Below, in pieces: positions 1 through 64,000 of a stretch of 64,000 nt of DNA (position 1 is its first letter; each line of letters begins with the position of its first letter). The stretch comes from Vicugna vicugna (taxonomy: Eukaryota): contig MU057398.1 in the NCBI GenBank assembly GCA_013265495.1, forward strand, positions 434,001-498,000. Direction: 5' to 3'. Under the pieces are notes generated by a model. It was not told the DNA's origin and did not search any database. It saw only the letters and a program-made list of their open reading frames with translations. The translations under genes and the position numbers were made by a program.

Positions 1-2443
<2,443 letters not shown>

Positions 2444-18891: not shown

Positions 18892-21800
18892 TCAGACGGT
18901 GGTGACGGAGAGGAGTGGGTTGTAGACCCGCGTGCCGTCAGCCGAGCGAGTGCCGTGGGCCAGCATCTCCTGGATGGTGATCCAGTTGTCCAGGATCTTC
19001 TTGTTCCGCTTCTTCATGGTTTTGCGGTGGCTCAAGGCAATGATGTTGAGCTCAGCCTTGCTTTCGCCATTCTGCTGCTCCCTCAGGCACTCCAGCCGGC
19101 TCTGCATCATGAACTCGCGCCGCTTCCGCTGCTCCCGGGCCCGGATCAGGTGCTGCTTCCGCTCCTCCTTGCTCCAATAGCGGCCCATCTTCATCTCGCT
19201 CACCGCGTCGTCGTCGGTGGTCATACCGCTGCGCTCCTCCCGGATCTTCAGGGCCCGGGCTTTCAGGAGGCGGTCGCGCACCGGTCGCTTGGCTACGTAG
19301 CGGGTCCCATCGCTGCGCACTTTGACCTTCCACTCCATGCGGGGCGCATCTGGGACTGTGGCCGCCGCCCCGCCCACCCGGGGGCCAGCAGCCAAACTCA
19401 AGGGGCCGTGGCCCAGCTCCTCCAGGCCACGAGGCGGGGCCAGTTGCATGCAGCTGTGGTAGTGCTCACCCTCCTGGCCCTGGGCACGGTGACGCCGAGA
19501 GAGGTAAGGGCTGCCTTCGGGGCCCGCCCGCTCCAGGGGCACCCCAGCCTTGGGGCTGCGACGGACACGCTCTTCTGCATGCTGCCTCCGGCCCACCTCA
19601 GGATCCCGGGAGAGGGAGCGGAACTTGGTGGGACTCCCCTGCGGGGGCGCGGCCTTGGGGTGGGTGGTGATAGGGGGTCCGGAGGGGGTCCGGTTCAAGT
19701 TGGAGTTTCCAGCCGTGGCCCGCCTCAGAGGGCTCTCCAGCAGGGGCTCCGTGAGCAATGGGGTGCTGCGGCAGCTCTCCCCCGTGTTGTAGGCGCTAGT
19801 GCTGTCCTTGTCCGACTTCTCGGGCAGCTCAGAGATGTCAGACAGCTCGTGCTTCTTGGGCTCGCTGGCCCCCAGGTCGTAGAGGCTCTCCTCCTCCAGC
19901 AGCCAGGCCTTCATGCAGCGCTCCCGCAGCTGCTGCATCTTCTGCGCCCGCAGGATGTTGCGGCACTTGAACTCCAGGTGCCGCAGCTCCTCCTCCAGCA
20001 CGGCCATCTCGTGGCCCACGCTCTCGTTGCGGTTGACGTCCAGGGCACCATGGCCGCCCGAGGCCCGAGGGAAGAGGAGGCCCAGCGGGTTGCCGTTCTC
20101 CAGGTGGCACTTGATTTCCAGTAACTCGCGGTAGCGCTCGTACTCTTCATCAGTGAGGCCCGGGACGTCGCCACCGCCGCTCCCCAGCCCTGCCCCATCG
20201 GCCAGCAGGGAGTCCATGCTGAAGTGGAAGTCGCGGCTCTGCAGGGCGTCCCCTTGCAGGCTGAACTTGCGCAGGGGCCCGGGCGTGTTGGTGGTGCTCA
20301 GGGGCTCGTCCCCCAGCAGGTCGTGTTCCGAGCTCTCCTCATTGCGGGTGCTCTCGTCAGTCCGGCCCACCCCGCTGTCCAACTCTTGGCTGTTGCTCAG
20401 GCCTGGTCCCACATCAGGAGCTCCTTTCTCCTCTTCGTTTCCAAGCTGAGGCAGACAGATGAGCCCCTCTTAGTCTGGGCCCCAGGGGTGCAGGCACCAC
20501 AGGAGGATGGTAAGGCTTTCCGGGGGTCCATCTCCCACCCCCCCCCCGCCCCTTCCCTCCTCCTCACCCTCCCCATGACTCACCCGCTCTTCCTCCTTCC
20601 TCACCTGCTGGGCAGGGGGGGACTTCAGCTTCCGCCCACGCAAATCCCCCTCATTCTCAGAGCCAAAGTCATCCAGGAAGTCATCCCGGTCACTGTCCTT
20701 CCACCGCTTGGCCAGCTGCAGAGACAGGTCTGTGCTGTCCCCACTGCCTTAAGAACCTCCCCAGACACCCCTCCAGTTGCCACTAGGTCCCAGCCCACTC
20801 AGCCGTCAGGGGCCAGAAGGGGAAACGGGCCCTGGGACACCGCCCACCCTCCATCAGCACCAGGTTGTTGGCATGTCTGTGCCCTCGTTAGCAGTTTTCA
20901 AGACAGAAAGTCTGATGTCAGGGGACCCAGGACACCCTGTGGACACACACACCTGACTCTCAGGCCGGGCCACCAGCAGGGAGATGTTGGTGTTCTCCTC
21001 CTGGCTCAGGATGGCCACTGCTTCTTCCCGGTTCTGGACGTCCACACCATTTATCTGTGGCAGGCCAAGGGACAATCAACAAGGACCACAAGGCTGGCTG
21101 TGGGGCAGGCCCCCGTTGAGCCACAGGGATCCCCTCGCAGGGCGCTCCTAACCTAACAGGCTCTTGAGTTGTGGTGAGAAGGAAACAAGGAGAAGGTGCC
21201 GGGGAAGAAGACAGCTGGGCCCGTGCAAAGGCACGAGTGCTCAGAGACCAGCTGCAGCAGGAGATGTGCTCACTTCTGGGGGACGGAGGGCAAGGCTGGC
21301 AAGGGGCCAGAGCAGCACAGGCCCTTGAGACCAGCAGATCCCACCAGCACACAGCAGCCACCCACGCAGTTGTGCAGGAGAAAGATGAGACCTAGCCCTG
21401 GATTCAGGCACGGCAGGATGCCTGGCATCCAGCTAGGCTCTCAGCAGGGGAGTGCGGGGATTGGCTAAGGGAGTTGGCGGGGCACTCAGCCTGCCTGCCC
21501 CACTCACCTGGATGATTCGGTCTCCCTCGCGGATCCGGCCATCTTTGGCTGCAATGCTATTGGGATTCACCTGCAAGGCACACGCATCACGGGGACTTGG
21601 CACCTTCCACGAAGGTGCCCTTTCGGTAGGAAGGGGTAGCCCTGCCTTGGGGACCCCAAAGCAAACTGGGGGCTGTTTTTTTAGCATGGGAAAGTATGGG
21701 AAAGTACCCAGACATCTGTCAGACAGGACGGAGAGAATGACCCCTGTGATCACCGAGAGGGCTGGCTGCAGGACGTGGGAGGGAGAACAAAGCCTGACCA

Positions 21801-27800: not shown

Positions 27801-30800
27801 AGACATAGGGCCATCAGCTGCACCCAGAACCCTTCAAGTTCGGAGAGAGCAACCCTAGCTAGCTGAGCCATTGTCAAAAAAATCTATTAGAAAATGTAAG
27901 GTTGCGGGTGGTGTGTAGCTCAGTGGTAGAGCATGTGCTTAGCCATGCACAGAAGTCCTGGGTTCAATCCCCAGTCCCTCCTTTAAAAAATAAACAAAGA
28001 AACCTAATTACACCACCCTCCCCCCCAAAATAGATGTTGCCTTCATCAAGTGTAAAACTCCTTCCTTTGGAACAATCCAGAAGAAATCCACTTTATCCTC
28101 CCAACACTTCACATACCTGAAAACCCACTTGAATTGTCCCACATCCCCCTAGCCCCTGTTCCCAGTGGCTTTCGCCTTCTCTAGGGCTCGGAGGCGGTCC
28201 CTGTTGGTCTGGCCACATGCCAGGCCCAATTCTTGGCCTCAGCTGGAAGCTACCTATGGCAGCCAATCCTGCCAGTTTCATAGGGCGCCACCCCACCTGA
28301 GACTGCGCTCTACTCAGGACTCTCCGCACAAGGGCACTCCCTACTGCTGAGATGGGCCCAAGTGGGCAGCCTTGTGGACCACAGTCCCAGCTGGGCTGGA
28401 AGTTGCTTTGCTTCCACTGAGGGCTCTGCAGAAAGGGGCCCCTGCCCTGCTGGGGACAGGGGCCATGAGCCTTAAGGTCCCAAGAGCAGTGGCCACCGCC
28501 GGACTCCGGGGCACCGGGGCACTAAGCTCCCCTCATGCTGGCCAAGCCCATCACAGAGCACGTGCTCCCGTCGGGAATCTTACCCCAGAGGATAAAACAG
28601 GCAACATTTGGGAGGAATTTGTCCATAACTATAACCTTGAAAATGTTCCTCATACCCTTTGATCCAGTAAATCTGCTCTAAGTAAGAGATCCTGAAACAA
28701 TAGGTATTACATGAATTACAAGGATGTTGAGAGCATTCATTATTTTTTTATTATGGTAAAATATACCTAACACAAAAGTTACCGTTTTAACCATTTCAAA
28801 GTGTACAATTCAGTGGCATTTAGTGCATTCACATAGGTATGCAACCATCGTGTCTATTAAATTCCAAGAAATTTTCATTCCCCCCAAAGGGAGGCCCCCT
28901 ACCCATTCTCTCCAAATTCACCCCAGCCCCCGGCACCACCTCCCCATCGCCTTTCTTCCCCTCTAGACATTTCATGTAAGTGGAGTCCGACAGCAGGCGG
29001 TCTGATGTGTCTGGCTTCTTTCCTTAGCATGGTTTCCAGGCCCATCCATATTACAGCAACTGCCAGGACACCATTCCTTTTATGCTGAATACCATTCCAT
29101 CGCATTCTACAATATTCCCTTGTGTGGATGGACCTCGCATTGTCAACAAACATTGGGTGGTTTCCACCTTTGGCGATTGTGAATCATGCTGCTATGAACA
29201 CAAGTCTTTGAATTCCTGTTTTCACATCTTTCGGGTGTATACCTAGAAATGAAGTCGCGTGGCCATATGGTCATTCTATATTGAATTTATTGAGGTATCA
29301 GCATTATTTGGGGGGGGTAATTCGGTTTATTTATTTATTCTTAATGGAGGTACTGGGGGTTGAACCCAGGACTTTGTGCATGCTAAGCATTCACTCTACC
29401 ACTGAGCTATACCTTCCTCGCCCCAGCATTATTCTTAATGCCAAAAACTTTACAACAATCTTAAGCCTGTGTCTACCTCATTTAAGTGTATAGCTGCCCT
29501 ACCAGAGTTTTCCAATAGCAAGTCTGTTTCTCAGAAGACATATAAAACGACACGTGGACTATGATGATTACCATATAAAATGCATGTTTATGGAAGAAGG
29601 CTGAGAAAGAATCCATTGATGGAAATGGAAATCTGAGATTTTTCTTTTTTCCAAACCTTATATAACATGGCTAAAAAGTCTTTTGAAAAAAATACATGTT
29701 TACAAACTTCAAAAAAAAATAGCACAGCTGGACAATTCTTGATATAAAATATTCAGCAGAAAGACCCGCTTGGATCAGCATCACCCCGATTCGGAGAGCA
29801 CGGATCTCCCAGTGGGAGGCAATCTGGCTCAGCTGGAGGCTGGGAGCGAGGTGTGAGACCACTGGGGCTTCATGCTGCCACCAGTGTGTGAGCTCCTAAG
29901 ATGCGTGGGGTTCGTGGGGCTTTTAAAACTATTTTTAATGGATGTACATGTTATGTATGTTCATTGGTATGTGTGTAAGTATAGAATATCACCCAATCAA
30001 TGCTCTCTTTTGGGGGGGGTAATTAGGTTTATTTATTTATAATTTTTTTTGAAGCCTAGGTGACATACAATGTTAGTTTCAGATGTACAGCGAAGTGATT
30101 CAGGTATACTTATACATACGTATATATTTTTTCTTCTCAGATTCTTTTCCATTGTATGTTATTACAAGAAATTAAATATAGCTCCCTGTGCTATACAGTA
30201 GGTCCTTGTCATTTATCTCTTTTATATATAGTAATGTGTGACTGTTAATCCCCAACCCTAATTTATCCGTCCCCTGCCCTTTCCCTTTTGGTAACCATAG
30301 TTTGTTTTCTATGTCCGTGAGGCTATTTTGGTTTGTAAATAGAATGTGCAAAAAAAAATTTATTTATTTAATGAAGGTACTGGGGATTGAACCCAGGACC
30401 TCGTGCATGCTAAACACATGCTCTGCCACCGAGCTTTACCCACCCCCGACCCAGTACTTTCTTTAAAGGACAGGAGGACATTCATGAGAACGGGCAGATG
30501 CTAGCAGTGGTTGGGTGTCTCTGGGAGTTAGTATTTATAAGGGGATTTTTCTTCTCTTTTTTGTTCTTTGCAGCCTTTTCTCCAATGAACATTACTTTTA
30601 CCATCAGAGAGAAGACATTCAAAAGCCACTCGCAGCCTGTGCTATGTTCTGAGTTTTTCTCACTTTCCCTGAGGACCCACTGGCTGCTTTGCGGGTCCCG
30701 GGACGCCCTGGCTGGGAGGGCAGCCTCTGGACTCAGGCCCCCCTGGGTGCTGATTCAGGGGAAACAGTGGCAATCAAGTCCCATCAGATGTCACATCCAG

Positions 30801-48434: not shown

Positions 48435-49891
48435 CCTAGAATTGCTAAAGCATTACTGAAGAGAAAGAAAGAGGCTGGAGGAATAACTCTCCCAGACTTC
48501 AGACAATACTATAGAGCTACAGTCATCAAGACAGCATGGTATTGGTACCAAAACAGACATATAGACCAATGGAACAGAATAGAGAGTCCAGAAATGAACC
48601 CACAAACTTTTGGTCAACTCATCTTTGACAAAGGAGGCAAGAATATACAATGGAATAAAGACAGTCTCTTCAGCAAATGGTGTTGGGAAAACTGGACAGC
48701 AGCATGTAAAACAATGAAGCTAGAACACACCCTTACACCATATACAAAAATCAACTCAAAATGGATTAAAGACTTAAACATAAGACAAGATACAACAAAC
48801 CTCCTAGAGGAAAACATAGGCAAAACATTATCTGACATACATTTCAAAAATTTTCTCCTAGAAGAAATAAAAGCAAGAATAAACAAATGGGACCTAATGA
48901 AACTTACAAGCTTCTGCAGAGCAAAGGAAACCAGAAATAAAACAAGAAGAAAACCTACGGAATGGGAAAAAATTTTTGCAAGTGAAACCGACAAAGGCTT
49001 GATCTCCAAAATATATAAGCAGCTCATACGACTCAATAAGAAAAAAATAAACAACCCAATCCAAAAATGGGCAGAAGACCTAAACAAGCAACTCTCCAAG
49101 GAAGACATACAAATGATCAAAAAGCACATGAAAAAATGTTCAATATCACTAATTATCAGAGAAATGCAAATCAAAACTACAATGAGGTATCACCTCACAC
49201 CAGTCAGAATGGCCGTCATTCAAAAATCCAAAAATGACAAATGCTGGAGAGGCTGTGGAGAAAGGGGAACCCTCCTACACTGCTGGTGGGAATGCAGTTT
49301 GGTGCAGCCACTATGGAAAACAGTGTGGAGATTCCTCAAAAGACTAGGAATAGACTTACCATATGACCCAGGAATCCCACTCCTGGGCTTGTACCCAGAA
49401 GGAAATCTACTTCAGGATGACACCTGCACCCCAATGTTCATAGCAGCACTATTTACAATAGCCAAAACATGGAAACAACCTAAATGTCCATCAACAGGTG
49501 ACTGGATAAAGAAGATGTGGTATATTTATACAATGGAATACTACTCAGCCATAAAAACCGACAACATAATGCCATTTGCAGCAACATGGATGCTCCTAGA
49601 GAATGTCATTCTAAGTGAAGTAAGCCAGAAAGAGAAAGAAAAATACCATATGAGATCGCTCATATGTGGAATCTAAAAAACAAAAACAAACAAACAAACA
49701 AAAACAAAGCATAAATACAGGACAGAAATAGACTCATGGACAGAGAATACAGACTTGTGGTTACCGGGGGGGTAGAGGGTGGGAAGGGATAGACTGGGAT
49801 TTCAAAATTGTAGAATAGATAAACAAGATTACACTGTATAGCACAGGGAAATATACACAAAATGTTATGATAAATCACAGAGAAAAAAAAA
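48435..49891 (+). mobile_element. Young 5'-truncated L1 with an uninterrupted ORF2 C-terminal frame
   Basis: The frame is open from 48435 to 49676 ([22 protein letters not shown]...[18 protein letters not shown]...SLICGI*). Perfect 17-bp TSD aagattattttccatga at 48418-48434 and 49892-49908. Confidence 0.95.
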
Positions 49892-50777: not shown

Positions 50778-51244
50778 TGTGAAGGAAAAGCCCAGCTGGG
50801 CTAACAAGCTAAGTCACAAATCTAAGTGCAACAAGTGTCGGATTACTGATCTGAGTTCTGCTGGGCTAACTCATAAATCTGAAGTTTAGTGTCAGTCTAT
50901 TGGGCTAACGAGCTCAGTCACAAATCTAAGTGTGATAAGTGTCGGTTTACTGATATAAGTTCTGCCGGGCTAACTCGTAAATCCAAGCTCAACAAGTGTC
51001 AGTAACGTGATCTGTTCCAAATTGATAAGCTCCAGTGTACTGATTCCTTGCTTTTTGTTGTTTGAACCTTATTGGCTAATAGCCCCATACTTGTAATTAA
51101 CCCTATAAAACCTCATGTGCACGTCTTGGAGGTGCTCAGAGCTTCGGAGCAGAAGCCCCTCTGAGCCCGCCGGCGTAATAAATCTGAGTACTCCAACCCT
51201 CCGAGTGGTGCTTGTTTCTTGGCTGGCCTGTCATTTCCGTAACA
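50778..51244 (+). mobile_element. Isolated 467-bp LTR of the same family as the downstream provirus
   Basis: TGTGAAGGAAA...TTTCCGTAACA termini. By eye it is identical to 55840-56353 except for one 47-bp indel. Confidence 0.95.
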
Positions 51245-51590
51245 TTTCTATTTCTGTTCTCTTCTAGGATTTAACCACTCAAACTCTAGAAAACTCACTT
51301 ACCAGGATTTTGCCACCTACTCTGTTAAGACGGCCGTTCACCTCATTAGAAATGAGAGCAAGTCCTCTGACCACGCATGGTCTTGCTCCTTTTGACCTCC
51401 GGTTTGGGAGGCCTATGAATTTTGGTCTGAGACCAAGTTCTGCGCCTGATTTAACTGAATCCTTTCATGGTCATGCTCAGTACTCAAAAGTACCCTCCCC
51501 TCCCCCTGCCTGTTCTTACAGGCATCCAGGCCATCCTATTCACAGTAGTAGGTATTTAAATTACTTTAAGGATCACATTTATGAGGCAAG

Positions 51591-52365: not shown

Positions 52366-52702
52366 TTTTTTTAAACATTTTTCATTGATTTATAATCATT
52401 CTACAATGTTGTGTCAAATTCCAGTGTAGAGCACAATTTTTCAGTTGTACATGAACATATATATATATTCATTGTCACATTTTTTTCTCTGTGAGCTACC
52501 GTTAAGATCTTGTATATATTTCCCTGTGCTATACAGTATAATCTTGTTTATCTTTTCTACATTTTTTTAATTTACTTTTTTGGGGGAGAAGGTCATTAGA
52601 TTTACTTATTTGTGTATTTTTTTAGAGGAGGTACTGGGGATTGAACCCAGGACCTTGTGTGCGCTAAGAATGTGCTCTACCACTTGAGCTATTCCCTCCT
52701 CC
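52366..52702 (-). mobile_element. Vic-1-like SINE (52580-52702) joined to an L1 3' end (52366-52560)
   Basis: Both are on the minus strand, and caagaaaaact flanks the composite at 52355-52365 and 52703-52713. Confidence 0.8.
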
Positions 52703-54605: not shown

Positions 54606-55020
54606 CACAATATCCCCTCCCCAGGAACTCATAAAGATGCATTTACTCTGGGAAGCAATGGTGATCTGGCCCTTAGAATTTCCAATGGCCCCCTTACAAC
54701 TGAAAAATAACCAAGCCCCTGAAATGGATACGCAAATGCCTCTGCACTCAGAGGGACTTGCATTTCAATGCACTTTAGTTTTTTGAGGAGTGGAAAGTAG
54801 TCAAAGGGAGAGAACCCACAACATCCCCTCCCTGGGAACTCACAAAGATGCATTTACTCCTGCAGGCAATTGTGATCTGACCTGAAGAATTTCGGAGGAC
54901 TTCCCTTAAAACCTAAAAGTACCCAAGAGCCAATATGTAGAAGCAAACGCCCTGCTGCCAAAGGGACTTGCATCTCAATGCTGTGTCCTTTTAAAGGAAG
55001 AGAGTACTTTGGTCAGCTTC
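54606..55020. repeat. Diverged tandem duplication, period about 211 bp
   Basis: 'cacaa.atcccctccc..ggaactca.aaagatgcatttactc...agggacttgcat.tcaatgc' starts at both 54606 and 54817. Confidence 0.8.
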
Positions 55021-55285
55021 CTGGCATTGTTAAAAGCAACAATCAAGAAAATCAACCTGGACCTTGCAATAAGACGCTACTGAGCCTTCCTGATTCCTGA
55101 GCAACTTCAACCTGGAAGTCTTTTTTTTTTTTTTTAAGGAAAAAAATCTTGACCAGTGCTTAACATCATATGCAAACATTAATTCCAGCTGTGTTGTAAA
55201 TCTAAAAGTCAAAGGCAAAACAACCAAGCGTGTAGAAGACAACAGGAGAATGTCTCCATGGTCTCAGAGTTGAGAAAGATTTCTT

Positions 55286-55361
55286 TTTTCTTTAATGGAG
55301 TGACTGAAGATTGAACCCAAGACCTTATGCAGGCTAGGCATGAGCTATATCCACCCCCCAG
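55286..55361 (-). mobile_element. Internally deleted Vic-1-like SINE
   Basis: 'ttgaacccaagacc...tgagctatatccacccc' with TSD gaaagatttctt at 55274-55285 and 55362-55373. Confidence 0.7.
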
Positions 55362-55839
55362 GAAAGATTTCTTAAATAGGACACAAAAGTACTAACCATA
55401 GGAGAATATATTGATAAATTAGTGTTTTCTGAGCTCTGAGGGCACTCAGCCAATTCGTTATTCTTCATGTCTTCAATGCATCTCTCCCCGCCCCCTGCAG
55501 TGTGACTTCTGCTCAGTTCCCATTCTCTTTACCCTCCTCCCCACCTCCCAGCCTGCCGCCCTACATCTCCAAGCTCTTGCTTTGTGCAAGGCATGTAGAA
55601 GAACCACTACTGGATGAGTTCCTCACCTACAGAAGCATACTTTGTTTCTGGTGTTTTCTGAGATTTGCTTCCCCTTGGTTGCTTTGCTGTGCTGTTCACA
55701 TATTAATTGCAGGTATCCCCTACATGGCTTCTGTTCTGTGTCCCTCCGATGTTCCCCAGGTCCTATGGCTCTTGCTGTCTGCAAGGGAGATTGGTTATAC
55801 CACTTTAGAGTGAACTCCGTACTTAGACAAAGTTCATTG

Positions 55840-56353
55840 TGTGAAGGAAAAGCCCAGCTGGGCTAACAAGCTAAGTCACAAATCTAAGTGCAACAAGTGT
55901 CGGATTACTGATCTGAGTTCTGCTGGGCTAACTCATAAATCTGAAGTTTAGTGTCAGTCTATTGGGCTAACGAGCTCAGTCACAAATCTAAGTGTGATAA
56001 GTGTCGGTTTACTGATATAAGTTCTGCCGGGCTAACTTGTAAATCTAAAGTTTAGTGTCAGTTTACTGGGCTAACAAGCTAACTCGTAAATCCAAGCTCA
56101 ACAAGTGTCAGTAACGTGATCTGTTCCAAATTGATAAGCTCCAGTGTACTGATTCCTTGCTTTTTGTTGTTTGAACCTTATTGGCTAATAGCCCCATACT
56201 TGTAATTAACCCTATAAAACCTCATGTGCACGTCTTGGAGGTGCTCAGAGCTTCGGAGCAGAAGCCCCTCTGAGCCCGCCGGCGTAATAAATCTGAGTAC
56301 TCCAACCCTCCGAGTGGTGCTTGTTTCTTGGCTGGCCTGTCATTTCCGTAACA
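55840..56353 (+). promoter_or_regulatory. Proviral 5' LTR (514 bp)
   Basis: Imperfect inverted termini, a 104-bp tandem repeat in U3 (55859-55962 and 55963-56066), ATTGG 56180-56184, TATAAAA 56213-56219 and AATAAA 56286-56291. Confidence 0.93.
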
Positions 56354-56357
56354 TTTC

Positions 56358-56375
56358 TGGAGGCCCCAGCGAGAT
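56358..56375 (+). other. Primer binding site complementary to tRNA-Thr(UGU)
   Basis: TGGAGGCCCCAGCGAGAT, 4 nt after the LTR CA. It is the reverse complement of the mammalian tRNA-Thr(TGT) 3' end as recalled (ATCTCGCTGGGGCCTCCA). Confidence 0.85.
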
Positions 56376-57633
56376 ACAACCACGCCGGCCCCTTGAGCCG
56401 CTGGACTGGTGGCTCCGGCCGACCGGGGGACGGGACTCCGGCAGCGAACGAGGAGGCGCCACCCGACAGTATTCCGGGTTCTCTTTCGTGACGGCAACTC
56501 GGCCCCCCGGGTGGCTGGGCTACAACCAGAGCCAGACTCCGTGGAGGGACGGACAGACTCACCAGGTGGCCGTCCGGACAAGGTAGGATCCCCCGGGAGG
56601 AATCAGGTCCTGTCCCATTGGACAGAAGAGGAGGCTGATCCCCTCCTACAGGCTCTCCGTCTGATGGTAACTCAGACGGGGAAATCAGGAATCAGGTCAG
56701 GAATCAGGTCCTGTCCCAGTGGACAGAAGAGGAGGCTGATCCCCTCCTACAGGAAATAGGATATTGGTATTGGTGGGAGGAATGTTGTTAACCTCTGTGT
56801 GTGTGTGTATGTGTGAGTGAATGAGCGGCCTGTGAAGCATGCGATCAGGCTCGAGTTTGTAGCTCCACGGCATTCTGCTACGGAGTTCGAGTGAGTCCCA
56901 ACCTGCGGTTCCGTGGTGACCTCATACGGCTCAGGGCGGTATCGGTCCCTCAGGGTCCCGATCGGAGTCAGCGGCTTATACTGACCCGCCAAAGCTAAGA
57001 GGCACCTTCGTCCCCGCGAGGGGAGCGGCCAGGCGGACGCAACGAAAACCCTCCCTTGTCTTGTCTGCGACACCGGCACAGGGTGGCTACACTGGGAGGG
57101 AAAAGGACATAGCCAATGAGTCAACGCCCCTGTGCCCTTGGAGGCTAGGATGCTATTTCTTTGAGAAAGTCTCCTACCTGACTCTGTCACAGAACACCCG
57201 AGACTTATTGTTCCCCTACTGAACTGACCCAAGTAGTGCCCCTTTTGCCTAGCCCCAGACACCCAGGACGTAAGTTTAGAAGACGAATTCCTTCAGGACC
57301 GGGCTTGCCCAGCCCTGGAGGTCCCTTTTCTAGTCCATTTGTTTTGCCATCTGCCGTCAGTCCCACGCCCCTGATACGTTAGTTCAGAATATAGAGAGGA
57401 TTTAATGAAGAAAGTCCCTGAAACTGCTTGAGGCCTTGAGATCCAGAGACATCAGCTGAGACTGGAACCCAGAGTCCCTGACCAAGTTAGCCTTAAAACA
57501 ACTCATAGACCCAGCAAGAGAGCAGTCTCTCTGGGAACTCCGGTGTTTTGAAGAGTGAAGAAGAAAAAGATATAAAGGCTACCTTCCCAAACATCTAAAG
57601 CAACAGAACTATTATCCTTAAATATCTAAAAGA

Positions 57634-59220
57634 ATGGGAGGCTCTAAGTCAAAACCCACCACTCTAGACTGCATGATTAAGAATTTCAAAAAGGGGTTCT
57701 CAGGAGACTATGGAATTCGAATGACCCCTGGCAGGCTGCGCACTTTGTGTGAGCTTGAATGGACTGCCTTTGGAGTCGGGTGGCCCTCAGGAGGAACTCT
57801 GGACCTAGCAACAGTGCGAGCAGTCTATCAAATAATCACTGGAACCCCAGGCCACCCAGATCAATTCCCTTACATTGACTCCTGGCTGAATATCGCCCAG
57901 ACTCTACCCCCATGGATTCGGTTTTGCTCAAATGGACCTGGACAATGCAAGATATTAGCAGCTCAGCCAGTCCAGGCCAAAAAGACAGACAGAAAAAAAC
58001 CGATTTTCCAGGGAGACGCAGAAGACGAGATATGCCTGCCCCCTCCATATGCCCCCAAGGCACAAACACCTCCAGTCCCATTGGAGACACCACCACCCTC
58101 TGTGTCACCACCTCCCCAACCTGAGGACCCAGAGGCAGAACTCAGCCCCCAGCCTGAGCCGGTAGGAAGGAGACTCCGCTCAGCACAAGCCGTGAAGCCA
58201 GCACCACCGGCCCTCCAAATGCCGCTGCGGGAGACACAAGGGCCACAGCAAGTTGGGGAAGACGGGACTGTTCAGCCTGGGCACCCCGTACTCTACTACC
58301 AACCCTTTAGCACCACAGACCTTCTCAATTGGCGCCATCACACTCCTTCCTACTCTGAAAAGCCACAGGCTATGATTGACCTCATAGAGTCTATCTTCCA
58401 TTCTCACCGGCCCACCTGGGAAGATGTCCGCCAGCTGCTTCTGACTCTTTTCAATACAGAGGAGAGGAGACGCATTCTCACTGAAGCACGAAAATGGCTG
58501 CAGGGCCGAGCCCCTGGGGACACAATGGATGTTGAGGCGTGGGCCATGACACGTGCCCCTGACACCAGACCAGATTGGGACTTTAACACTCAAGAAGGAA
58601 GAGAAGCACTACGTGAGTACCGGGAGGCCATCCTACAAGGGCTAAAAGCAGGAGCCAAGAAGCCAACTAACATGTCTAAAACGACCACAGTGACCCAGAG
58701 GCCAGACGAAACCCCCACTGACTTCTATGAGAGACTGTGTGAAGCATTCCGAGTCTACACTCCTTTTGATCCTGAGGCCCAAGAAAACCAACGGATGGTC
58801 AACGCTGCCTTCGTAGCCCAATCATACCCAGATATACGCCGGAAACTCCAAAAACTGGATGGATTCGCAGGGATGAACGCTACACAGCTGCTGGAAGTAG
58901 CAAACAAAGTTTTTGTAAACCGAGAACGGGAAGCCCAACGAGAAGCAGACCAGCGAATGAAGCAGAAAGCCGCGCTCCTTGCAGCAGCCCTGGGGAAAAC
59001 AGGCTTCAGCCAGAACCCTGCACCACCCCGGAAGAGGGGACCCCAACCATGGATGCCCCTGGGCCGAGACCAATGTGCATACTGCCGGGAGACTGGGCAC
59101 TGGAAGAACGAGTGCCCAAACAGAAAGGATGGAAAGAGAGCACTCCCTAAAAGGCCTACTTATCAGCTGGAGCCACCAGCCAGTAATCACATCGGACTGG
59201 CTGGGGTTAACTCAGAATAG
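57634..59220 (+). CDS. gag: Retroviral Gag, 528 aa
   Basis: Myristoylation-type start MGGSKSK, PPPY late domain, major homology region (QRPDETPTDFYERL) and one CCHC knuckle CAYCRETGHWKNEC. Ends in TAG. Confidence 0.96.
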   Translation: MGGSKSKPTTLDCMIKNFKKGFSGDYGIRMTPGRLRTLCELEWTAFGVGWPSGGTLDLATVRAVYQIITGTPGHPDQFPYIDSWLNIAQTLPPWIRFCSNGPGQCKILAAQPVQAKKTDRKKPIFQGDAEDEICLPPPYAPKAQTPPVPLETPPPSVSPPPQPEDPEAELSPQPEPVGRRLRSAQAVKPAPPALQMPLRETQGPQQVGEDGTVQPGHPVLYYQPFSTTDLLNWRHHTPSYSEKPQAMIDLIESIFHSHRPTWEDVRQLLLTLFNTEERRRILTEARKWLQGRAPGDTMDVEAWAMTRAPDTRPDWDFNTQEGREALREYREAILQGLKAGAKKPTNMSKTTTVTQRPDETPTDFYERLCEAFRVYTPFDPEAQENQRMVNAAFVAQSYPDIRRKLQKLDGFAGMNATQLLEVANKVFVNREREAQREADQRMKQKAALLAAALGKTGFSQNPAPPRKRGPQPWMPLGRDQCAYCRETGHWKNECPNRKDGKRALPKRPTYQLEPPASNHIGLAGVNSE

Positions 59221-59284
59221 GAGAGACCGGGCTCCCTGCCCCTGGGCCCCCGGGAGCCCAAGGTCAAGATGTTTATAGGGGGCC
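59218..59284 (+). promoter_or_regulatory. gag-pol readthrough signal (UAG, 8-nt spacer, pseudoknot)
   Basis: S1 is GGGCTCCC 59229-59236 with GGGAGCCC 59252-59259. S2 is GGCCCCC 59245-59251 with GGGGGCC 59278-59284. Loop 2 is 18 nt. Confidence 0.88.
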
Positions 59285-62200
59285 AACCAATGACTTTTAT
59301 GGTAGACACAGGAGCAGAGTATTCTGTGGTGACCCAACCTGTAGCCCCCCTGACCAAAAAAAAGGCGACTATTATTGGGGCTACTGGGGACTCAACTGCC
59401 CGCCATTTCTGCCAACCACGATCCTGTCAAGTAGGGGGCCATCTAGTGACACATGAATTTTTATATTTGCCTGAATGCCCAATACCATTGCTTGGAAGAG
59501 ACCTTCTGTCTAAATTGGGGGCACAAATTACCTTTGTCCCCGGGAAACAGGCACATCTGACCCTACAGGGAGAGTCTATGATTCTAGCCATCTCAGTTCC
59601 CCGAGAAGAAGAGTGGCGTCTGTATGAGAGCAGAGAACTCCAGGAAAATCCTTGCAAACTCCTGGAAGAGTTTCCATTAGTCTGGGCTGAAAATGGACCA
59701 CCAGGCTTGGCACATAATCAGGCACCACTGGTGATTGACCTCAAACCTGGAGCCAGCCCAGTCAGACAGAAGCAATATCCCATGCCTCGAGAGGCCCACC
59801 TAGGAATCCAGAAGCATATACAGCGCCTCAGACAAGAGGGAATCCTAACTGAGTGCAGATCTCCCTGGAACACACCGTTGCTCCCAGTGAAGAAAGCAGA
59901 AGGAACAGATTATAGGCCAGTGCAGGACTTACGAAAAGTAAATGAAGTAGTCACTACAATACATTCAGCAGTGCCAAATCCATACACTCTTCTGGGCCTC
60001 ATTCCGGCAGATGCCAAATGGTTTACATGCCTAGACCTTAAAGATGCTTTCTTCTGTCTTCGACTCTCACCTGTGAGCCAGCCCATATTCGCATTTGAAT
60101 GGGAGGATCCCCATACAGGAGGAAAAACTCAACTGACATGGACACGTCTCCCCCAAGGCTTTAAAAACTCGCCCACCTTGTTCGGAGAGGCACTAGCCGC
60201 AGACCTTGTAAAATTCCCTGGGGAAACATTGAACTGTACTCTGCTCCAGTATGTGGATGACTTGCTGTTAGCCAGCCCCAGTGAAGAGGACTGTTGGAAA
60301 GGAACTCGAGCCCTCCTAGGGTTACTCCAAACAACTGGGTACAAGGTCTCATGGAAAAAGGCCCAGATCTGCAAAAAGACAGTCAAATACTTGGGATTTA
60401 TTATCTCAGAGGGACACCGAGCCCTAGGACCAGAACGAAAACAAGTTATTTGTGCCATACCCAGACCGGAAACAAAAAGGAAACTGAGAGAGTTCCTGGG
60501 CGCAGCTGGGTTTTGCCGGATCTGGATCCCCGGATTTTCAAGAATAGCCAAGCCCCTCTACGAAGCAACTGCTGGATCAGGAAAAGAAACCCTCAAATGG
60601 GAAACTAAACAAGAAAATGCCTTTAGGCAATTAAAGGAACTACTAACCCAAGCCCCAGCACTAGGCTTACCAGATGTAACACGAGAGTTTAATCTGTTTG
60701 TACATGAAAGAGACCAAACTGCTCTTGGAGTCCTAACTCAGAATGTGGGGCCATGGCAGCGCCCTGTGGCTTATTTATCTAAAAGACTGGACCCTGTAGC
60801 ATCAGGATGGCCACCCTGTTTACGGGCCCTCGCTGCCACAGCCCTCCTGGTCAATGAGGCAGACAAACTCACACTGGGACAGACTTTAAATGTAAAAGTG
60901 CCCCATTCTGTGGTGGCCCTGATGAATGGCCCAGGTTACAAATGGATAACTAACACAAGGATGACCCACTACCAGGGGCTTCTATGTGAAAATCCAAGAG
61001 TCCGTCTAGAGACTGTGCAAACCTTAAACCCAGCCACATATTTGCCTGAAGGGGAAGGGCAGCCTGACCACAACTGCGAAGAAATCGTTGAAGAGGTGTA
61101 TGCAAGCAGGCCTGATCTAACCGACAAGCCCCTGCAAAACCCAGACCTGGAACTTTTCACAGACGGCAGCAGTTACATGCAAGATGGACAACGGCGAGCA
61201 GGTTACGCTGTAACAACAACCCGAGAGGTAATAAAGGCAGAGTCCCTTCCCCCAGGATGGTCTGCTCAGCGAGCAGAGATCTGGGCACTGGTCCAGGCAC
61301 TAAGGGAAGGGAAAGGAAAACGAGTCAATATATACACTGATTCCAAATATGCATTTGCAACCTTGCATGTACATGGAGCCATCTATAAGGAGAGAGGACT
61401 TTTGACTGCTGGGGGAAAAGAAATCAAAAACAAAGAAGAAATTTTACAGTTACTGGAGGCAGTATGGGATCCAAAGGAAGTGGCCGTTATTCACTGTAAG
61501 GGACATCAAAGAGGAAATGACCCTGTGAGCCAGGGGAACAGGCTAGCTGATCAAAAGGCAAGAGAAGCAGCCGCCTGGGAACACTCAGTAATTAAAGTTA
61601 TGGCAGCGCCAGAGCTACCCACTGCCCCAGAATATAGTCATGATGAAAACAAGTGGGCACAGGCTGAACGAGGAGAGAAAAGAAAGGACGGATGGTGGAT
61701 CATGACGGATGGAAGGGTTTTCATCCCAGAACGACTAGCTTATCGTTTAGTCCAACAACAGCACGAAGCCACACATATGGGAAAAACAGCTTTAGAGGCC
61801 CTCTTAAAGCGATATTTCCTAATTTCTCGTCTCCCTACTCTATGTGCATCAGTTTCCCAACGCTGCTTGCTCTGTGCACAAAACAATCCAAAACAAGGGC
61901 TCACTGGGCCAATGGGAATACAACGATGTGGATTGGCTCCCTTTGAAGATTTAGAAGTGGACTTTACTGAACTTGGGCCCAGTAAGGGATATAAGTACCT
62001 GCTGGTTTTCGTCTGCACCTTCACAGGGTGGGTAGAGGCCTACCCCACCAGGACAGAGAAAGCAAGGGAAGTGACAAAGGCTCTTCTCAGGGATGTTATC
62101 CCTCGATTTGGAATGCCTACCTCCATCGGGTCTGACAATGGACCCGCCTTTGTGTCAGAAATTGTACAGCAAGTGGCAAAGGCACTGAGCATCCGCTGGA

Positions 62201-62856
62201 ACCTACACACAGCATACCGGCCTCAAAGCTCAGGGAAAGTAGAACGAATGAACAGAACTCTAAAACAAATTATAGCTAAAATCAGCCAAGAAACCCAGCT
62301 TCCCTGGGTGGACATTCTACCCCTGGCTCTGTTGCGAATTAGATGCACCCCAAGATTTAATATTGGGTACTCTCCCTTTGAAATCCTCTATGGGCGACCG
62401 CCACCTTTAGTCAGGATGAGAAACCCCACCCCAGAAATAGGAAATCTAGGGCTCCACCAACAACTGTTGGGACTAGGAAAAGTACTACGAGAAGTTTGGG
62501 GTTGGGTGATAGAGAAAACCCCCATTTCATTAGGGGTTCAAGTGCATCCCCATAAACCAGGTGACCAGGTATGGGTGAAGGATTGGAAAAAGGAACCTCT
62601 CAAACCAACATGGAAGGGACCATATTTAGTGGTATTAACTACTCCTACAGCTGTTAAAGTTGCAGGAATCGTCCCTTGGATCCACCACTCCAGAGTCAAG
62701 AGAGCAACTGCACCTCAGACAGAGGGTCCCTGGAAAATTGAGAGTGTCCCGGGAGACCCGCTCAAGATCAAGATCAAGAGGGACCAGAAAAGGATCGACG
62801 AGCCCTGCTCTAGCCACACCCGGAAGCTGGCTAGTCAACGCACGGCCGAAGCTTGA
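59221..62856 (+). CDS. pol: Retroviral Pro-Pol, in frame with gag via UAG readthrough
   Basis: Protease VDTGA, RT LPQG and YVDD, RNase H FTDGS and YTDS, integrase HHCC with D-D-E (VDFT, SDNG, VERMN), and GPY. No interruptions. Confidence 0.97.
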   Translation, partial: ERPGSLPLGPREPKVKMFIGGQPMTFMVDTGAEYSVVTQPVAPLTKKKATIIGATGDSTARHFCQPRSCQVGGHLVTHEFLYLPECPIPLLGRDLLSKLGAQITFVPGKQAHLTLQGESMILAISVPREEEWRLYESRELQENPCKLLEEFPLVWAENGPPGLAHNQAPLVIDLKPGASPVRQKQYPMPREAHLGIQKHIQRLRQEGILTECRSPWNTPLLPVKKAEGTDYRPVQDLRKVNEVVTTIHSAVPNPYTLLGLIPADAKWFTCLDLKDAFFCLRLSPVSQPIFAFEWEDPHTGGKTQLTWTRLPQGFKNSPTLFGEALAADLVKFPGETLNCTLLQYVDDLLLASPSEEDCWKGTRALLGLLQTTGYKVSWKKAQICKKTVKYLGFIISEGHRALGPERKQVICAIPRPETKRKLREFLGAAGFCRIWIPGFSRIAKPLYEATAGSGKETLKWETKQENAFRQLKELLTQAPALGLPDVTREFNLFVHERDQTALGVLTQNVGPWQRPVAYLSKRLDPVASGWPPCLRALAATALLVNEADKLTLGQTLNVKVPHSVVALMNGPGYKWITNTRMTHYQGLLCENPRVRLETVQTLNPATYLPEGEGQPDHNCEEIVEEVYASRPDLTDKPLQNPDLELFTDGSSYMQDGQRRAGYAVTTTREVIKAESLPPGWSAQRAEIWALVQALREGKGKRVNIYTDSKYAFATLHVHGAIYKERGLLTAGGKEIKNKEEILQLLEAVWDPKEVAVIHCKGHQRGNDPVSQGNRLADQKAREAAAWEHSVIKVMAAPELPTAPEYSHDENKWAQAERGEKRKDGWWIMTDGRVFIPERLAYRLVQQQHEATHMGKTALEALLKRYFLISRLPTLCASVSQRCLLCAQNNPKQGLTGPMGIQRCGLAPFEDLEVDFTELGPSKGYKYLLVFVCTFTGWVEAYPTRTEKAREVTKALLRDVIPRFGMPTSIGSDNGPAFVSEIVQQVAKALSIRWNLHTAYRPQSSGKVERMNRTLKQIIAKISQETQLPWVDILPLALLRIRCTPRFNIGYSPFEILYGRPPPLVRMRNPTPEIGNLGLHQQLLGLGKVLREVWGWVIEKTPISLGVQVHPHKPGDQVWVKDWKKEPLKPTWKGPYLVVLTTPTAVKVAGIVPWIHHSRVKRATAPQTEGPWKIESVPGDPLKIKIKRDQKRIDEPCSSHTRKLASQRTAEA

Positions 62857-63043
62857 GGAAAGCCCAACGCAGCTGTTAAATATATTTCTTTTGTGCTCCC
62901 TTGCCTCTTTCCTTGTTTTCTATACCAGTCTGCGTACTAGCAGTGGGGCTAGCTAGCGCCACCCCACCTGACTGGAACATAGGCCATAAAATCCTGATAG
63001 CTATTTTATATCTTCTTATAATTAGTGCCATCACCGCAGCATC

Positions 63044-64000
63044 ATGTCTAAGATAATCATAAGGCTGATGTTACTAATGCTAATGTCCTCACTCTCCTTG
63101 GCTGTACAGTGCACCTGCATGGAACCGGGTGACAGGTGGTCCATATACCGGCCTGTATTTTCAGCTTATACTTATCAGCCGAGTCAATGCTATGACTCCG
63201 CTTCAGAGTGCACATATCAGGGAAAATCCTACTGGATTGGCACAATTAAGGCTTATTATGTATCTAGCATCAAATGCTATGGCACACCCGGCAAGCTGGT
63301 GTGCTGGACCAAGCAAACACATTATGGGATGAGTGATGGAGGGGGCGTACAGGACCAGGCACGCCGGCAAGCAGTCCAACAAGCAGTCCAGAGGCAACAC
63401 CGGAAGTTATTACCTACCCGGAAGCCAATAAAACTTCCATCTTTAGCCGAGCCTCGGGATCTGGATCCACAAATAAATGGGCTGTTAGCCGCAGTCCATG
63501 GGATTCTCAATCATTCCAATCCAGACCTGGCTAAAGATTGCTGGCTATGCTTGCGTCCTGGCCCCATCCAGCACCTGGCTTTACCTCTGACAAACCTCAC
63601 TAAGACTTTCACCACAACTCATAGCGATGCCGTTTCTACCACTAGGAGTTCCAGGCTGAACTGGGTACAGCTCGCCTACAAGGCACCAGAATGTTATTTC
63701 AACAATGGAACTAATCCTTTAGAGGGCAATCTAACTATAAATCAATGTATTAAAACCTCTCACTGTATGGGTCTAGGGTGCCAACCCACACAAAGATGGT
63801 GTTCTAATAACGGGACTTATTTTGTATGTGGTGAATTTGCCTACCGGTGCCTCCCTGCCAGATGGGCAGGGTTATGTGCTTTGGCTTATCTCACTCCCCG
63901 AATGGACATTATGCCTAATAATCAAAGTCTGCCCATCCCTGTCATAACTCACCAGCATCCACGGAGAATAAAACGAGCTATACAATTGATCCCCTTGCTA
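63044..64000 (+). CDS. env: Retroviral Env: signal peptide, complete SU and start of TM, open to the window end
   Basis: Hand translation gives 319 codons with no stop: MSKIIIRLMLLMLMSSLSLAVQCTC...CWTKQTHYGMSDGGGVQDQAR (motif 63332-63364)...DCWLCL (CWLC 63539-63550)...RRIKR|AIQLIPLL (furin site 63965-63976). It is missing from the ORF track because no stop falls inside the window. Confidence 0.93.
   Translation, partial: MSKIIIRLMLLMLMSSLSLAVQCTCMEPGDRWSIYRPVFSAYTYQPSQCYDSASECTYQGKSYWIGTIKAYYVSSIKCYGTPGKLVCWTKQTHYGMSDGGGVQDQARRQAVQQAVQRQHRKLLPTRKPIKLPSLAEPRDLDPQINGLLAAVHGILNHSNPDLAKDCWLCLRPGPIQHLALPLTNLTKTFTTTHSDAVSTTRSSRLNWVQLAYKAPECYFNNGTNPLEGNLTINQCIKTSHCMGLGCQPTQRWCSNNGTYFVCGEFAYRCLPARWAGLCALAYLTPRMDIMPNNQSLPIPVITHQHPRRIKRAIQLIPLL

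Follow-up and report, generated by a model that had tools for sequence, protein, structure and literature searches.

Surface subunit of a syncytin-1/RDR-type envelope in a probably young endogenous gammaretrovirus of Vicugna vicugna

Our study reports on the envelope gene (env) of an endogenous retrovirus (ERV) at the end of a 64,000-nucleotide stretch of Vicugna vicugna DNA (assembly GCA_013265495.1, contig MU057398.1, positions 434,001 to 498,000 of the forward strand), which is referred to here as the window and in whose numbering all coordinates are given. Env is the last gene of a provirus that begins at 55840 and continues past the window end. An initial annotation had described an intact env at this position, carrying the receptor motif of syncytin-1 and of the RD114 and D-type retrovirus (RDR) interference group, and had proposed that it could be an infectious envelope, a receptor-blocking restriction factor or a placental fusogen. 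We conclude that the 957 bases concerned are likely the part of env that codes for the surface subunit (SU) of a syncytin-1/RDR-type envelope, carried by a young endogenous gammaretrovirus.

The env frame lies on the forward strand and runs from the ATG at 63044 to base 64000 (319 codons, 957 bases) with zero stops; 63044 is the first ATG of the frame, since the upstream stop in that frame ends at 63025. The frame encodes a signal peptide, followed by the whole of SU and by eight residues from the start of the transmembrane subunit (TM), an assignment based on a match to the Pfam family TLV_coat (E = 2.8e-26, profile positions 114-403 of 560) and on the frame being open to the window end. The N-terminus is hydrophobic, and AlphaFold2 models a helix over residues 2-15. 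Motif reading places an N-terminal receptor-binding domain at residues 22-96 (63107-63331), with CTC at 23-25, CYX5C at 49-56 and CX8CW at 78-88, and the sequence SDGGGVQDQAR, an instance of the RDR-group motif SDGGGX2DX2R, at residues 97-107 (63332-63364), where it precedes a helix modelled at 102-121. Exactly six N-X-S/T sequons are present (156, 184, 221, 229, 256 and 293). CWLC occupies residues 166-169 (63539-63550); in the gamma-type Env family this motif is the SU half of a pair that exchanges a disulfide between SU and TM, the partner being CX6CC in TM. Here the CXXC half alone is read, and its CX6CC partner would lie beyond the window end. A furin-type SU/TM cleavage site, RIKR, at residues 308-311 (63965-63976), was read as a motif and by alignment with RRAKR of a camelid 418-residue protein, discussed below, and with the cleavage region of syncytin-2. 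The first eight TM residues, AIQLIPLL (63977-64000), are the start of a fusion peptide that is cut by the window end, and they align with AAQRIPLL and AIHFIPLL in the same two proteins. The features given in the initial annotation (signal peptide, CWLC, six sequons, RIKR at codon 311 and the fusion-peptide start) can all be read in the sequence. Its description of the gene as intact goes beyond the data and is not confirmed: the frame is open through SU for 319 codons, while TM past its first eight residues lies outside the window.

The best solved relative of the encoded protein is human syncytin-1 (PDB 8ouh_D; E = 3.5e-26 over residues 36-305, HMMER), and, judged by sequence scores, the matches to TLV_coat and to syncytin-1 are far beyond chance. 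In this alignment the 13-residue string GMSDGGGVQDQAR is identical in the two proteins, exactly as the initial annotation had stated, and the spacing of the upstream cysteines (CYX5C, CX8CW) agrees with its description of them as HERV-W-like. The match to syncytin-2 is confined to the last 66 residues (E = 2e-14).

Upstream of env, and on the same strand, the remaining parts of a provirus can be followed from its 5' long terminal repeat (LTR). The LTR, which begins TGTGAAGG, lies at 55840-56357, with bounds taken from its identity with a solo LTR; its 3' end is unsure and falls either at the AACA at 56353 or four bases on, at 56357. It contains a TATA-like element, CTATAAAA, near 56213 and AATAAA at 56288. 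The U3 region holds direct repeats of about 104 bases (55859-56112), the units of which are 83% identical. Directly after the LTR comes an 18-mer resembling a primer-binding site (PBS), TGGAGGCCCCAGCGAGAT (56358-56375), which we take to be complementary to a threonine tRNA. The leader that follows (56376-57633, about 1.26 kb, delimited by reading the sequence) contains a candidate splice donor, AAG/GTAGGA, with the intron starting at 56583, a consensus match only, and also a 55-base direct repeat (56598-56652 and 56699-56753, 98% identical). An open reading frame of 120 residues at 56224-56586 sits in R/U5 and the leader and was treated as spurious.

The gag gene (57634-59220) is open for 528 codons and ends in TAG; it was identified by Pfam matches (Gag_MA, 1e-14; Gag_p30, 1.6e-59; zf-CCHC, 2.6e-4) and by motifs, namely an N-terminal MG, PPPY at 136 and a CCHC knuckle at 481. 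The pro-pol gene (59221-62856), open over 1211 codons (1195 residues from the first ATG), continues in the gag frame behind the single TAG, so that the gag terminator is the one internal stop in 1740 gag-pro-pol codons. Placement of gag and pro-pol in one frame behind a single stop is the read-through layout of gammaretroviruses. Pro-pol matches the Pfam families RVP, RVT_1, RNase_H, rve and MLVIN_C, and displays DTG, LPQG and YVDD, an HHCC-type zinc motif and the D..D..35E spacing at 910. Between pro-pol and env, a pyrimidine-rich tract (62885-62928, forward strand) with AG at 62927-62928 is a candidate env splice acceptor, by consensus match only. The features found here that are expected of a gammaretroviral provirus comprise Gag with matrix, p30 and nucleocapsid parts, gag and pro-pol in one frame, protease, reverse transcriptase (RT), RNase H and integrase, the C-terminus of murine leukemia virus (MLV) type, an LTR and a PBS.

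The RT-RNase H region matches those of xenotropic MLV-related virus (XMRV) and Moloney MLV with E-values of 6.8e-255 and 2.8e-252. A search of a protein collection, in which 8000 candidates were scored, gave 685 matches, of which the best 120 are considered here. Among these listed matches the identities to named Pol proteins are 58% for Rauscher MLV, 57% for reticuloendotheliosis virus (REV) and 56% for porcine endogenous retrovirus B (PERV-B), and nearly all gammaretrovirus-like Pol proteins fall at 54-62%, the two others being partial matches at 45% and 50%. The pol of the window is about equally far from nearly all of them and therefore represents a separate lineage rather than a variant of a named virus. 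The sole relative above 62% among the matches listed is an unnamed 768-residue protein (P0215), 89% identical to the whole RT-RNase H, which probably represents a further copy of this ERV family, already deposited as a predicted protein.

A solo LTR of the same family lies about 4.6 kb upstream of the provirus (50778-51248, forward strand) and was recognized by its identity to the 5' LTR: 472/472 aligned bases are the same, the solo LTR lacking 47 bases of the U3 repeat array in a single gap, and the identity runs four to five bases beyond the expected AACA end. Reading of the sequence downstream of it revealed no PBS or gag, and a search for a 4-bp target-site duplication around it gave none that was convincing. 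A single site duplicated by misassembly was considered as the source of the two LTRs and was ruled out by their differing left flanks; because these flanks differ, the solo LTR and the provirus mark two insertion sites. Two insertions of one young family are found within 5 kb.

Zero differences over 472 bases limit the combined divergence of the two LTRs to about 0.6% at most, as a rough 95% bound. Over the 6174 coding bases, 892/18522 possible single-base changes (4.8%) would create a stop; a neutral divergence of about 1% would therefore give about three stops, and none is present. The observed/expected ratio of CpG is 0.43 in the provirus against 0.18 in 12 kb of flank, and in the SU tree described below the terminal branch of the window env measures 0.027 against 0.14 for a related fragment, P0005. 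LTR identity, open frames and CpG content agree on a young element, whose age, at the usual mammalian rates, would be at most a few million years. Because gag and pro-pol are open and the solo LTR is identical, we regard the element as a young endogenous gammaretrovirus and not as a domesticated gene. The locus would represent a recent germline insertion, of a family that is possibly still active.

Four conserved features mark the receptor-binding domain of RDR envelopes, PCXC, CYX5C, CX8-9CW and SDGGGX2DX2R, according to the accessible part of Cheynet et al. (2006; PMC1524976), and SDGGGX2DX2R has been used as diagnostic of the group (PMC12584738). The window SU has 3/4 of them (CYX5C, CX8CW and SDGGGX2DX2R). 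An AlphaFold2 model of the 319 residues, built from an input alignment of 46 rows, is of moderate quality only (mean predicted local distance difference test score (pLDDT) 74.6, predicted template-modelling score 0.47); it is confident over residues 41-90 (block pLDDT 87-91) and over most of the C-domain. When this model was compared with the Protein Data Bank by Foldseek, the top match was 8ouh_D, the receptor-binding domain of syncytin-1 on ASCT2 (E = 4.1e-8, template-modelling score 0.67 on the target, 121 columns, 36% identity), followed by 8oui_D, suppressyn on ASCT2 (E = 4.8e-4); the nature of both structures is taken from the available portion of a 2026 review (PMC13709493). Further matches were to filovirus GP1 at 8-15% identity, in a table that gives no aligned ranges, and these probably reflect the C-domain.

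Among 1.84 billion representatives searched, 239 relatives of the env protein were found at E <= 0.001, 69 at 1e-10 and four at 1e-30. DGGG is present in 47/157 collected relatives and the full motif in 22, many of the others being fragments in which that part is missing. Some of them could be named through their clusters, which contain the envelope of REV and proteins called 'syncytin-1-like' from mole, pika, cats, tree shrew and pangolin. For a tree of the SU we used 35 of 213 collected proteins, each trimmed to the part homologous to the query. Most rows were chosen manually, so as to avoid near-duplicates, among the 60 proteins whose query coverage reached 60%, and five with lower coverage were added: a short HERV-W-like fragment, a second mole protein, a colugo protein and two of the three outgroup envelopes. 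The 32 ingroup rows, among them the window env, separate from the three rows chosen as outgroup with support of 100/97. Within the ingroup there are a HERV-W-like clade (99/99), a clade of mole, pangolin, pika, cats, bats and REV (98/87) and a camelid clade (100/99) that contains the window env and joins the REV-type clade at 94/83, a node that carries no star in the tree. From motifs, homology, predicted fold and its place in this tree, the assignment of the window SU to the syncytin-1/RDR kind of gamma-type envelope, as the initial annotation had it, is supported.

The comparison with individual members of this kind shows both likeness and difference. With syncytin-1 (the HERV-W Env, ERVWE1; 8OUH chain D) the window env shares GMSDGGGVQDQAR, the CYX5C and CX8CW spacing and its best structural match in the N-domain. 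Syncytin-1 differs in being a host placental gene and the only gene still open in an old primate provirus, whereas the provirus around the window env is open as far as it can be read; in the SU tree the HERV-W-like rows make up a clade apart from the camelid one, and overall SU identity between the two is low. The solved syncytin-1 chain also has SWIC where the window env has CWLC, possibly through engineering of the construct. The Env of REV (P03399) is likewise an SDGGGX2DX2R-bearing Env on a gammaretroviral gag-pro-pol and falls in the same motif-bearing group of the tree, but at about 30% identity it stands at a distance from the window SU, and it belongs to another, starred clade. RD114 and baboon endogenous virus (BaEV) are further gammaretroviruses with an RDR-type env.

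The nearest relatives of the window env are camelid proteins rather than further proviral copies, which makes the camelid-like genome surmised in the initial annotation plausible. They include a 418-residue protein named 'syncytin-1' or 'syncytin-1-like' by NCBI in three species, Vicugna pacos (XP_072809774.1), Camelus dromedarius (XP_031298347.2) and Camelus bactrianus (XP_074212149.1), and forming a cluster of 13 members that are all 418 residues long (P0003, P0193-P0204). Across the full 319 residues it shares 69-72% identity with the window env, of which it is the sister in the SU tree (100/99). It retains the signal peptide, CTC, CYX5C, CX8CW, SDGGGAQDQAR, CWLC, RRAKR, a fusion-peptide-like stretch and CX6CC, and ends 15 residues past CX6CC, at a point that corresponds to residue 495 of a 586-residue full-length relative and precedes the anchor. 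It differs from the window env in having neither membrane anchor nor tail, and is known here from protein entries outside the window. The form in Camelus ferus has 367 residues and diverges after residue 285. An open frame of the same length in llama-side and camel-side species suggests, at the level of sequence, an old captured gene under selection, of which the window env appears to be a younger relative. The 418-residue gene is a better candidate for co-option than the window env; by analogy, its product is possibly a secreted or receptor-blocking Env domesticated in Camelidae, and an anchorless Env with a receptor-binding domain would stand nearer to suppressyn or Refrex-1 than to a fusogen. 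The statement in the initial annotation that no camelid syncytin had been described holds for the literature, as a full-text search found no paper on one, the 418-residue protein included; it does not hold for annotation, given the NCBI names in the three species. A survey of camelid transposons (PMC8605555), in its available part, gives ERV1 counts and mentions Gag and Env domains but no such family.

P0005, a protein of 219 residues from a public contig of 1113 bases, is an 87%-identical fragment of the window env lineage, with changes at conserved positions (in window numbering, C241Y and a cysteine in place of R107 of the motif), which suggests that older, decaying copies of the family exist. 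A search for longer proteins returned one match at 33% identity and a search for near ones six, of which the best is 87% identical with 68% of the query covered. Pattern searches for env protein relatives gave eight matches in IMG/VR and 352 in JGI metagenomes, none of which was confirmed; an exact search of metagenome contigs for the 51-base pattern at the end of the window gave zero matches, and a phage collection contained no match to env. In sequencing runs we recorded the share of sampled 31-mers of 55001-64000 that was present, a figure that does not resolve the locus or the part covered. Fourteen DNA runs with four coded organism labels, from several studies, had 0.83-0.84 each. Two RNA-seq runs labelled 'reproductive system metagenome' (X15 and X16) had 0.31 and 0.29, and X17, of uncertain type and guessed to be RNA, had 0.27; the RNA runs X18-X20 (0.14-0.19) were counted as no evidence. 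From these shares it appears that the element or near-identical copies are widespread in the host group, and that some of this sequence is present in RNA.

With regard to the receptor, all RDR envelopes tested so far use homologues of ASCT2 or ASCT1, as stated in the accessible part of a review (PMC9967133). This statement and the homology to the ASCT2-bound domain of syncytin-1 make ASCT2 the first receptor candidate, and on the analogy we lean slightly towards ASCT2 or ASCT1 as the receptor of the window env. Both ASCT2 use and the broad host range put forward in the initial annotation would follow from family membership.

Our analysis suggests a model for the activity of the element. Its layout consists of 5' LTR, PBS, long leader, gag, a TAG read through to pro-pol, a candidate splice acceptor and env. 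The env product would be translated from a spliced mRNA, enter the endoplasmic reticulum by its signal peptide, be glycosylated at up to six sites and be cut at RIKR. By homology, the N-terminal domain would bind a neutral amino-acid transporter of the SLC1A family, with ASCT2 (SLC1A5) as first candidate; on receptor binding, CWLC would release TM for class I fusion, and a cell expressing the protein would block its own receptor, resulting in superinfection interference. The window env probably works, by analogy, as an ordinary gamma-type viral entry protein, for which a receptor of the SLC1A family is likely. Among the three roles proposed in the initial annotation, the one most in keeping with these data is that of envelope of a virus that is, or was until recently, infectious.

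Several observations weigh against parts of this interpretation. The fourth RDR motif, PCXC, reads QCTC in the window SU, where CXC is kept and the proline is absent. The env model is moderate, with residues 24-37 of the N-domain below 50 pLDDT and residues 123-136 and 298-319 poor. The camelid clade is a separate branch outside the HERV-W-like (99/99) and the REV/felid/bat (98/87) clades; the window env lies among the motif-bearing rows together with REV and HERV-W-like sequences, on a branch of its own kind. Named envelopes of RD114, BaEV and simian retrovirus (SRV) are not among the rows of the tree, so REV, the HERV-W-like rows and the motif are the grounds for the RDR label. Modelling of RDR trimers makes the SDGGG motif an occluded structural linker, as described in the available part of a preprint by Hotzel (10.1101/2023.10.07.561363), with intrachain contacts and no receptor contact according to the accessible portions of this and a second preprint (10.1101/2024.03.17.585361); on these models the motif may not itself touch the receptor, and receptor use by the camelid branch would be assigned by analogy with the family. 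The window stops short of the rest of TM, the polypurine tract, the 3' LTR and the target-site duplication, and env may be broken downstream. The age of the provirus is not measurable from its own LTR pair, as the 3' LTR is not in the window, and the identity of the two LTRs that were compared may stem from gene conversion between neighbours. A full-length env of the window lineage was not found in a collection of 15 billion proteins.

The last of these points, together with the end of the window eight residues into TM, would be in keeping with a dead provirus, in which env or the 3' end is broken just past base 64000 and nothing functional is made; so would the closest other copy, P0005, as a fragment with changed conserved cysteines such as C241Y. 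Against such an element speak 2058 consecutive codons in three genes that are open save for the gag terminator. With uniform decay, the remaining 250 or so codons are expected to be open too, and the lack of annotated proteins is weak evidence because annotation pipelines often skip ERVs. We consider a dead provirus unlikely, and expect with good confidence that TM is open downstream of the window.

A receptor-blocking restriction factor, in which Env occupies the receptor against related exogenous viruses in the manner of Fv4, Refrex-1 or suppressyn, would agree with suppressyn being the second-best structural match of the N-domain, and any expressed RDR-type Env should interfere at its receptor (family knowledge, and the accessible part of PMC9967133). 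Any young ERV would bring about such interference as a side effect, the window copy bears no mark of selection for the role, its whole provirus is open, and the anchorless 418-residue camelid gene suits the role better, which makes a restriction factor at this locus very unlikely.

A domesticated placental fusogen, that is, a camelid 'syncytin' that might for example fuse trophoblast giant cells, could draw on the homology of the SU to syncytin-1 with its identical 13-residue motif, on the furin site and CWLC, on the multinucleate trophoblast cells recorded for camelid placentas in the available parts of two papers (PMC9476219 and PMC8083812) and on the RNA runs labelled 'reproductive system metagenome', with 0.29-0.31 of the sampled words of 9 kb. 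Captured envelopes are normally the sole open gene of an old, decayed provirus, env being kept while the rest decays; here gag and pro-pol are fully open and an identical solo LTR lies within 5 kb. The older anchorless relative in alpaca and two camel species is the likelier domesticated copy, and the giant cells of the alpaca arise by mitotic polyploidization, as far as the title of one cited work tells. The window env is not a good syncytin candidate, and its role as a placental fusogen is scarcely credible.

The young endogenous gammaretrovirus that we favor resembles koala retrovirus and the mule deer CrERV in its full-length provirus, its open gag, pro-pol and start of env and its LTR copies without substitutions. 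It differs from them in that insertional polymorphism and infectivity are documented for these viruses, while the window provirus is known from sequence alone. Transfers of RDR-type envelopes among many retrovirus lineages and hosts are known, as is their capture as host genes in the case of syncytin-1. A wider scenario, possible if rather doubtful, combines an active or recently active camelid gammaretrovirus, with insertions that differ between individuals, and an anchorless 418-residue Env, captured once in the camel-llama ancestor, which may counter that virus group in secreted or receptor-blocking form; if true, a host-virus arms race over the ASCT2 receptor would be readable, on both sides, in one genome. 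If the element is young, camelids would be added to the few mammals in which a gammaretrovirus has recently become endogenous, which would bear on camelid health and breeding, on the biotechnological use of camelid cells and animals and on the origin of receptor-blocking host genes. Neither a camelid RDR-type ERV nor a camelid syncytin was described in any paper returned by our full-text literature search, the survey of Sinha and Johnson (2017) aside. The novelty is modest, and the family may already stand in repeat libraries; the interest lies in how well the provirus is preserved and in the presence, within one family of hosts, of an older relative of its env that is conserved and lacks an anchor.

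The remainder of the window contains host sequence. A kinase exon at 678-2300 (forward strand) matches SRPK1 and SRPK2 (E = 1.6e-16), and the nearest Atlas clusters of a 525-residue open stretch at 18892-20469 (reverse strand) are named 'PDZ domain containing 4' (score 0.75, a lead only). In human, such a kinase/PDZ gene pair presumably lies on the X chromosome, at Xq28, and on this ground the provirus may be X-linked. A 413-residue open stretch at 48435-49676 (forward strand) resembles, by eye, the C-terminal part of LINE-1 ORF2. Four tRNA-like Rfam matches (27916-27974, 29345-29416, 30372-30443 and 52626-52698) are probably tRNA-derived short interspersed elements and, with the LINE-1-like stretch, make up ordinary mammalian repeat content.

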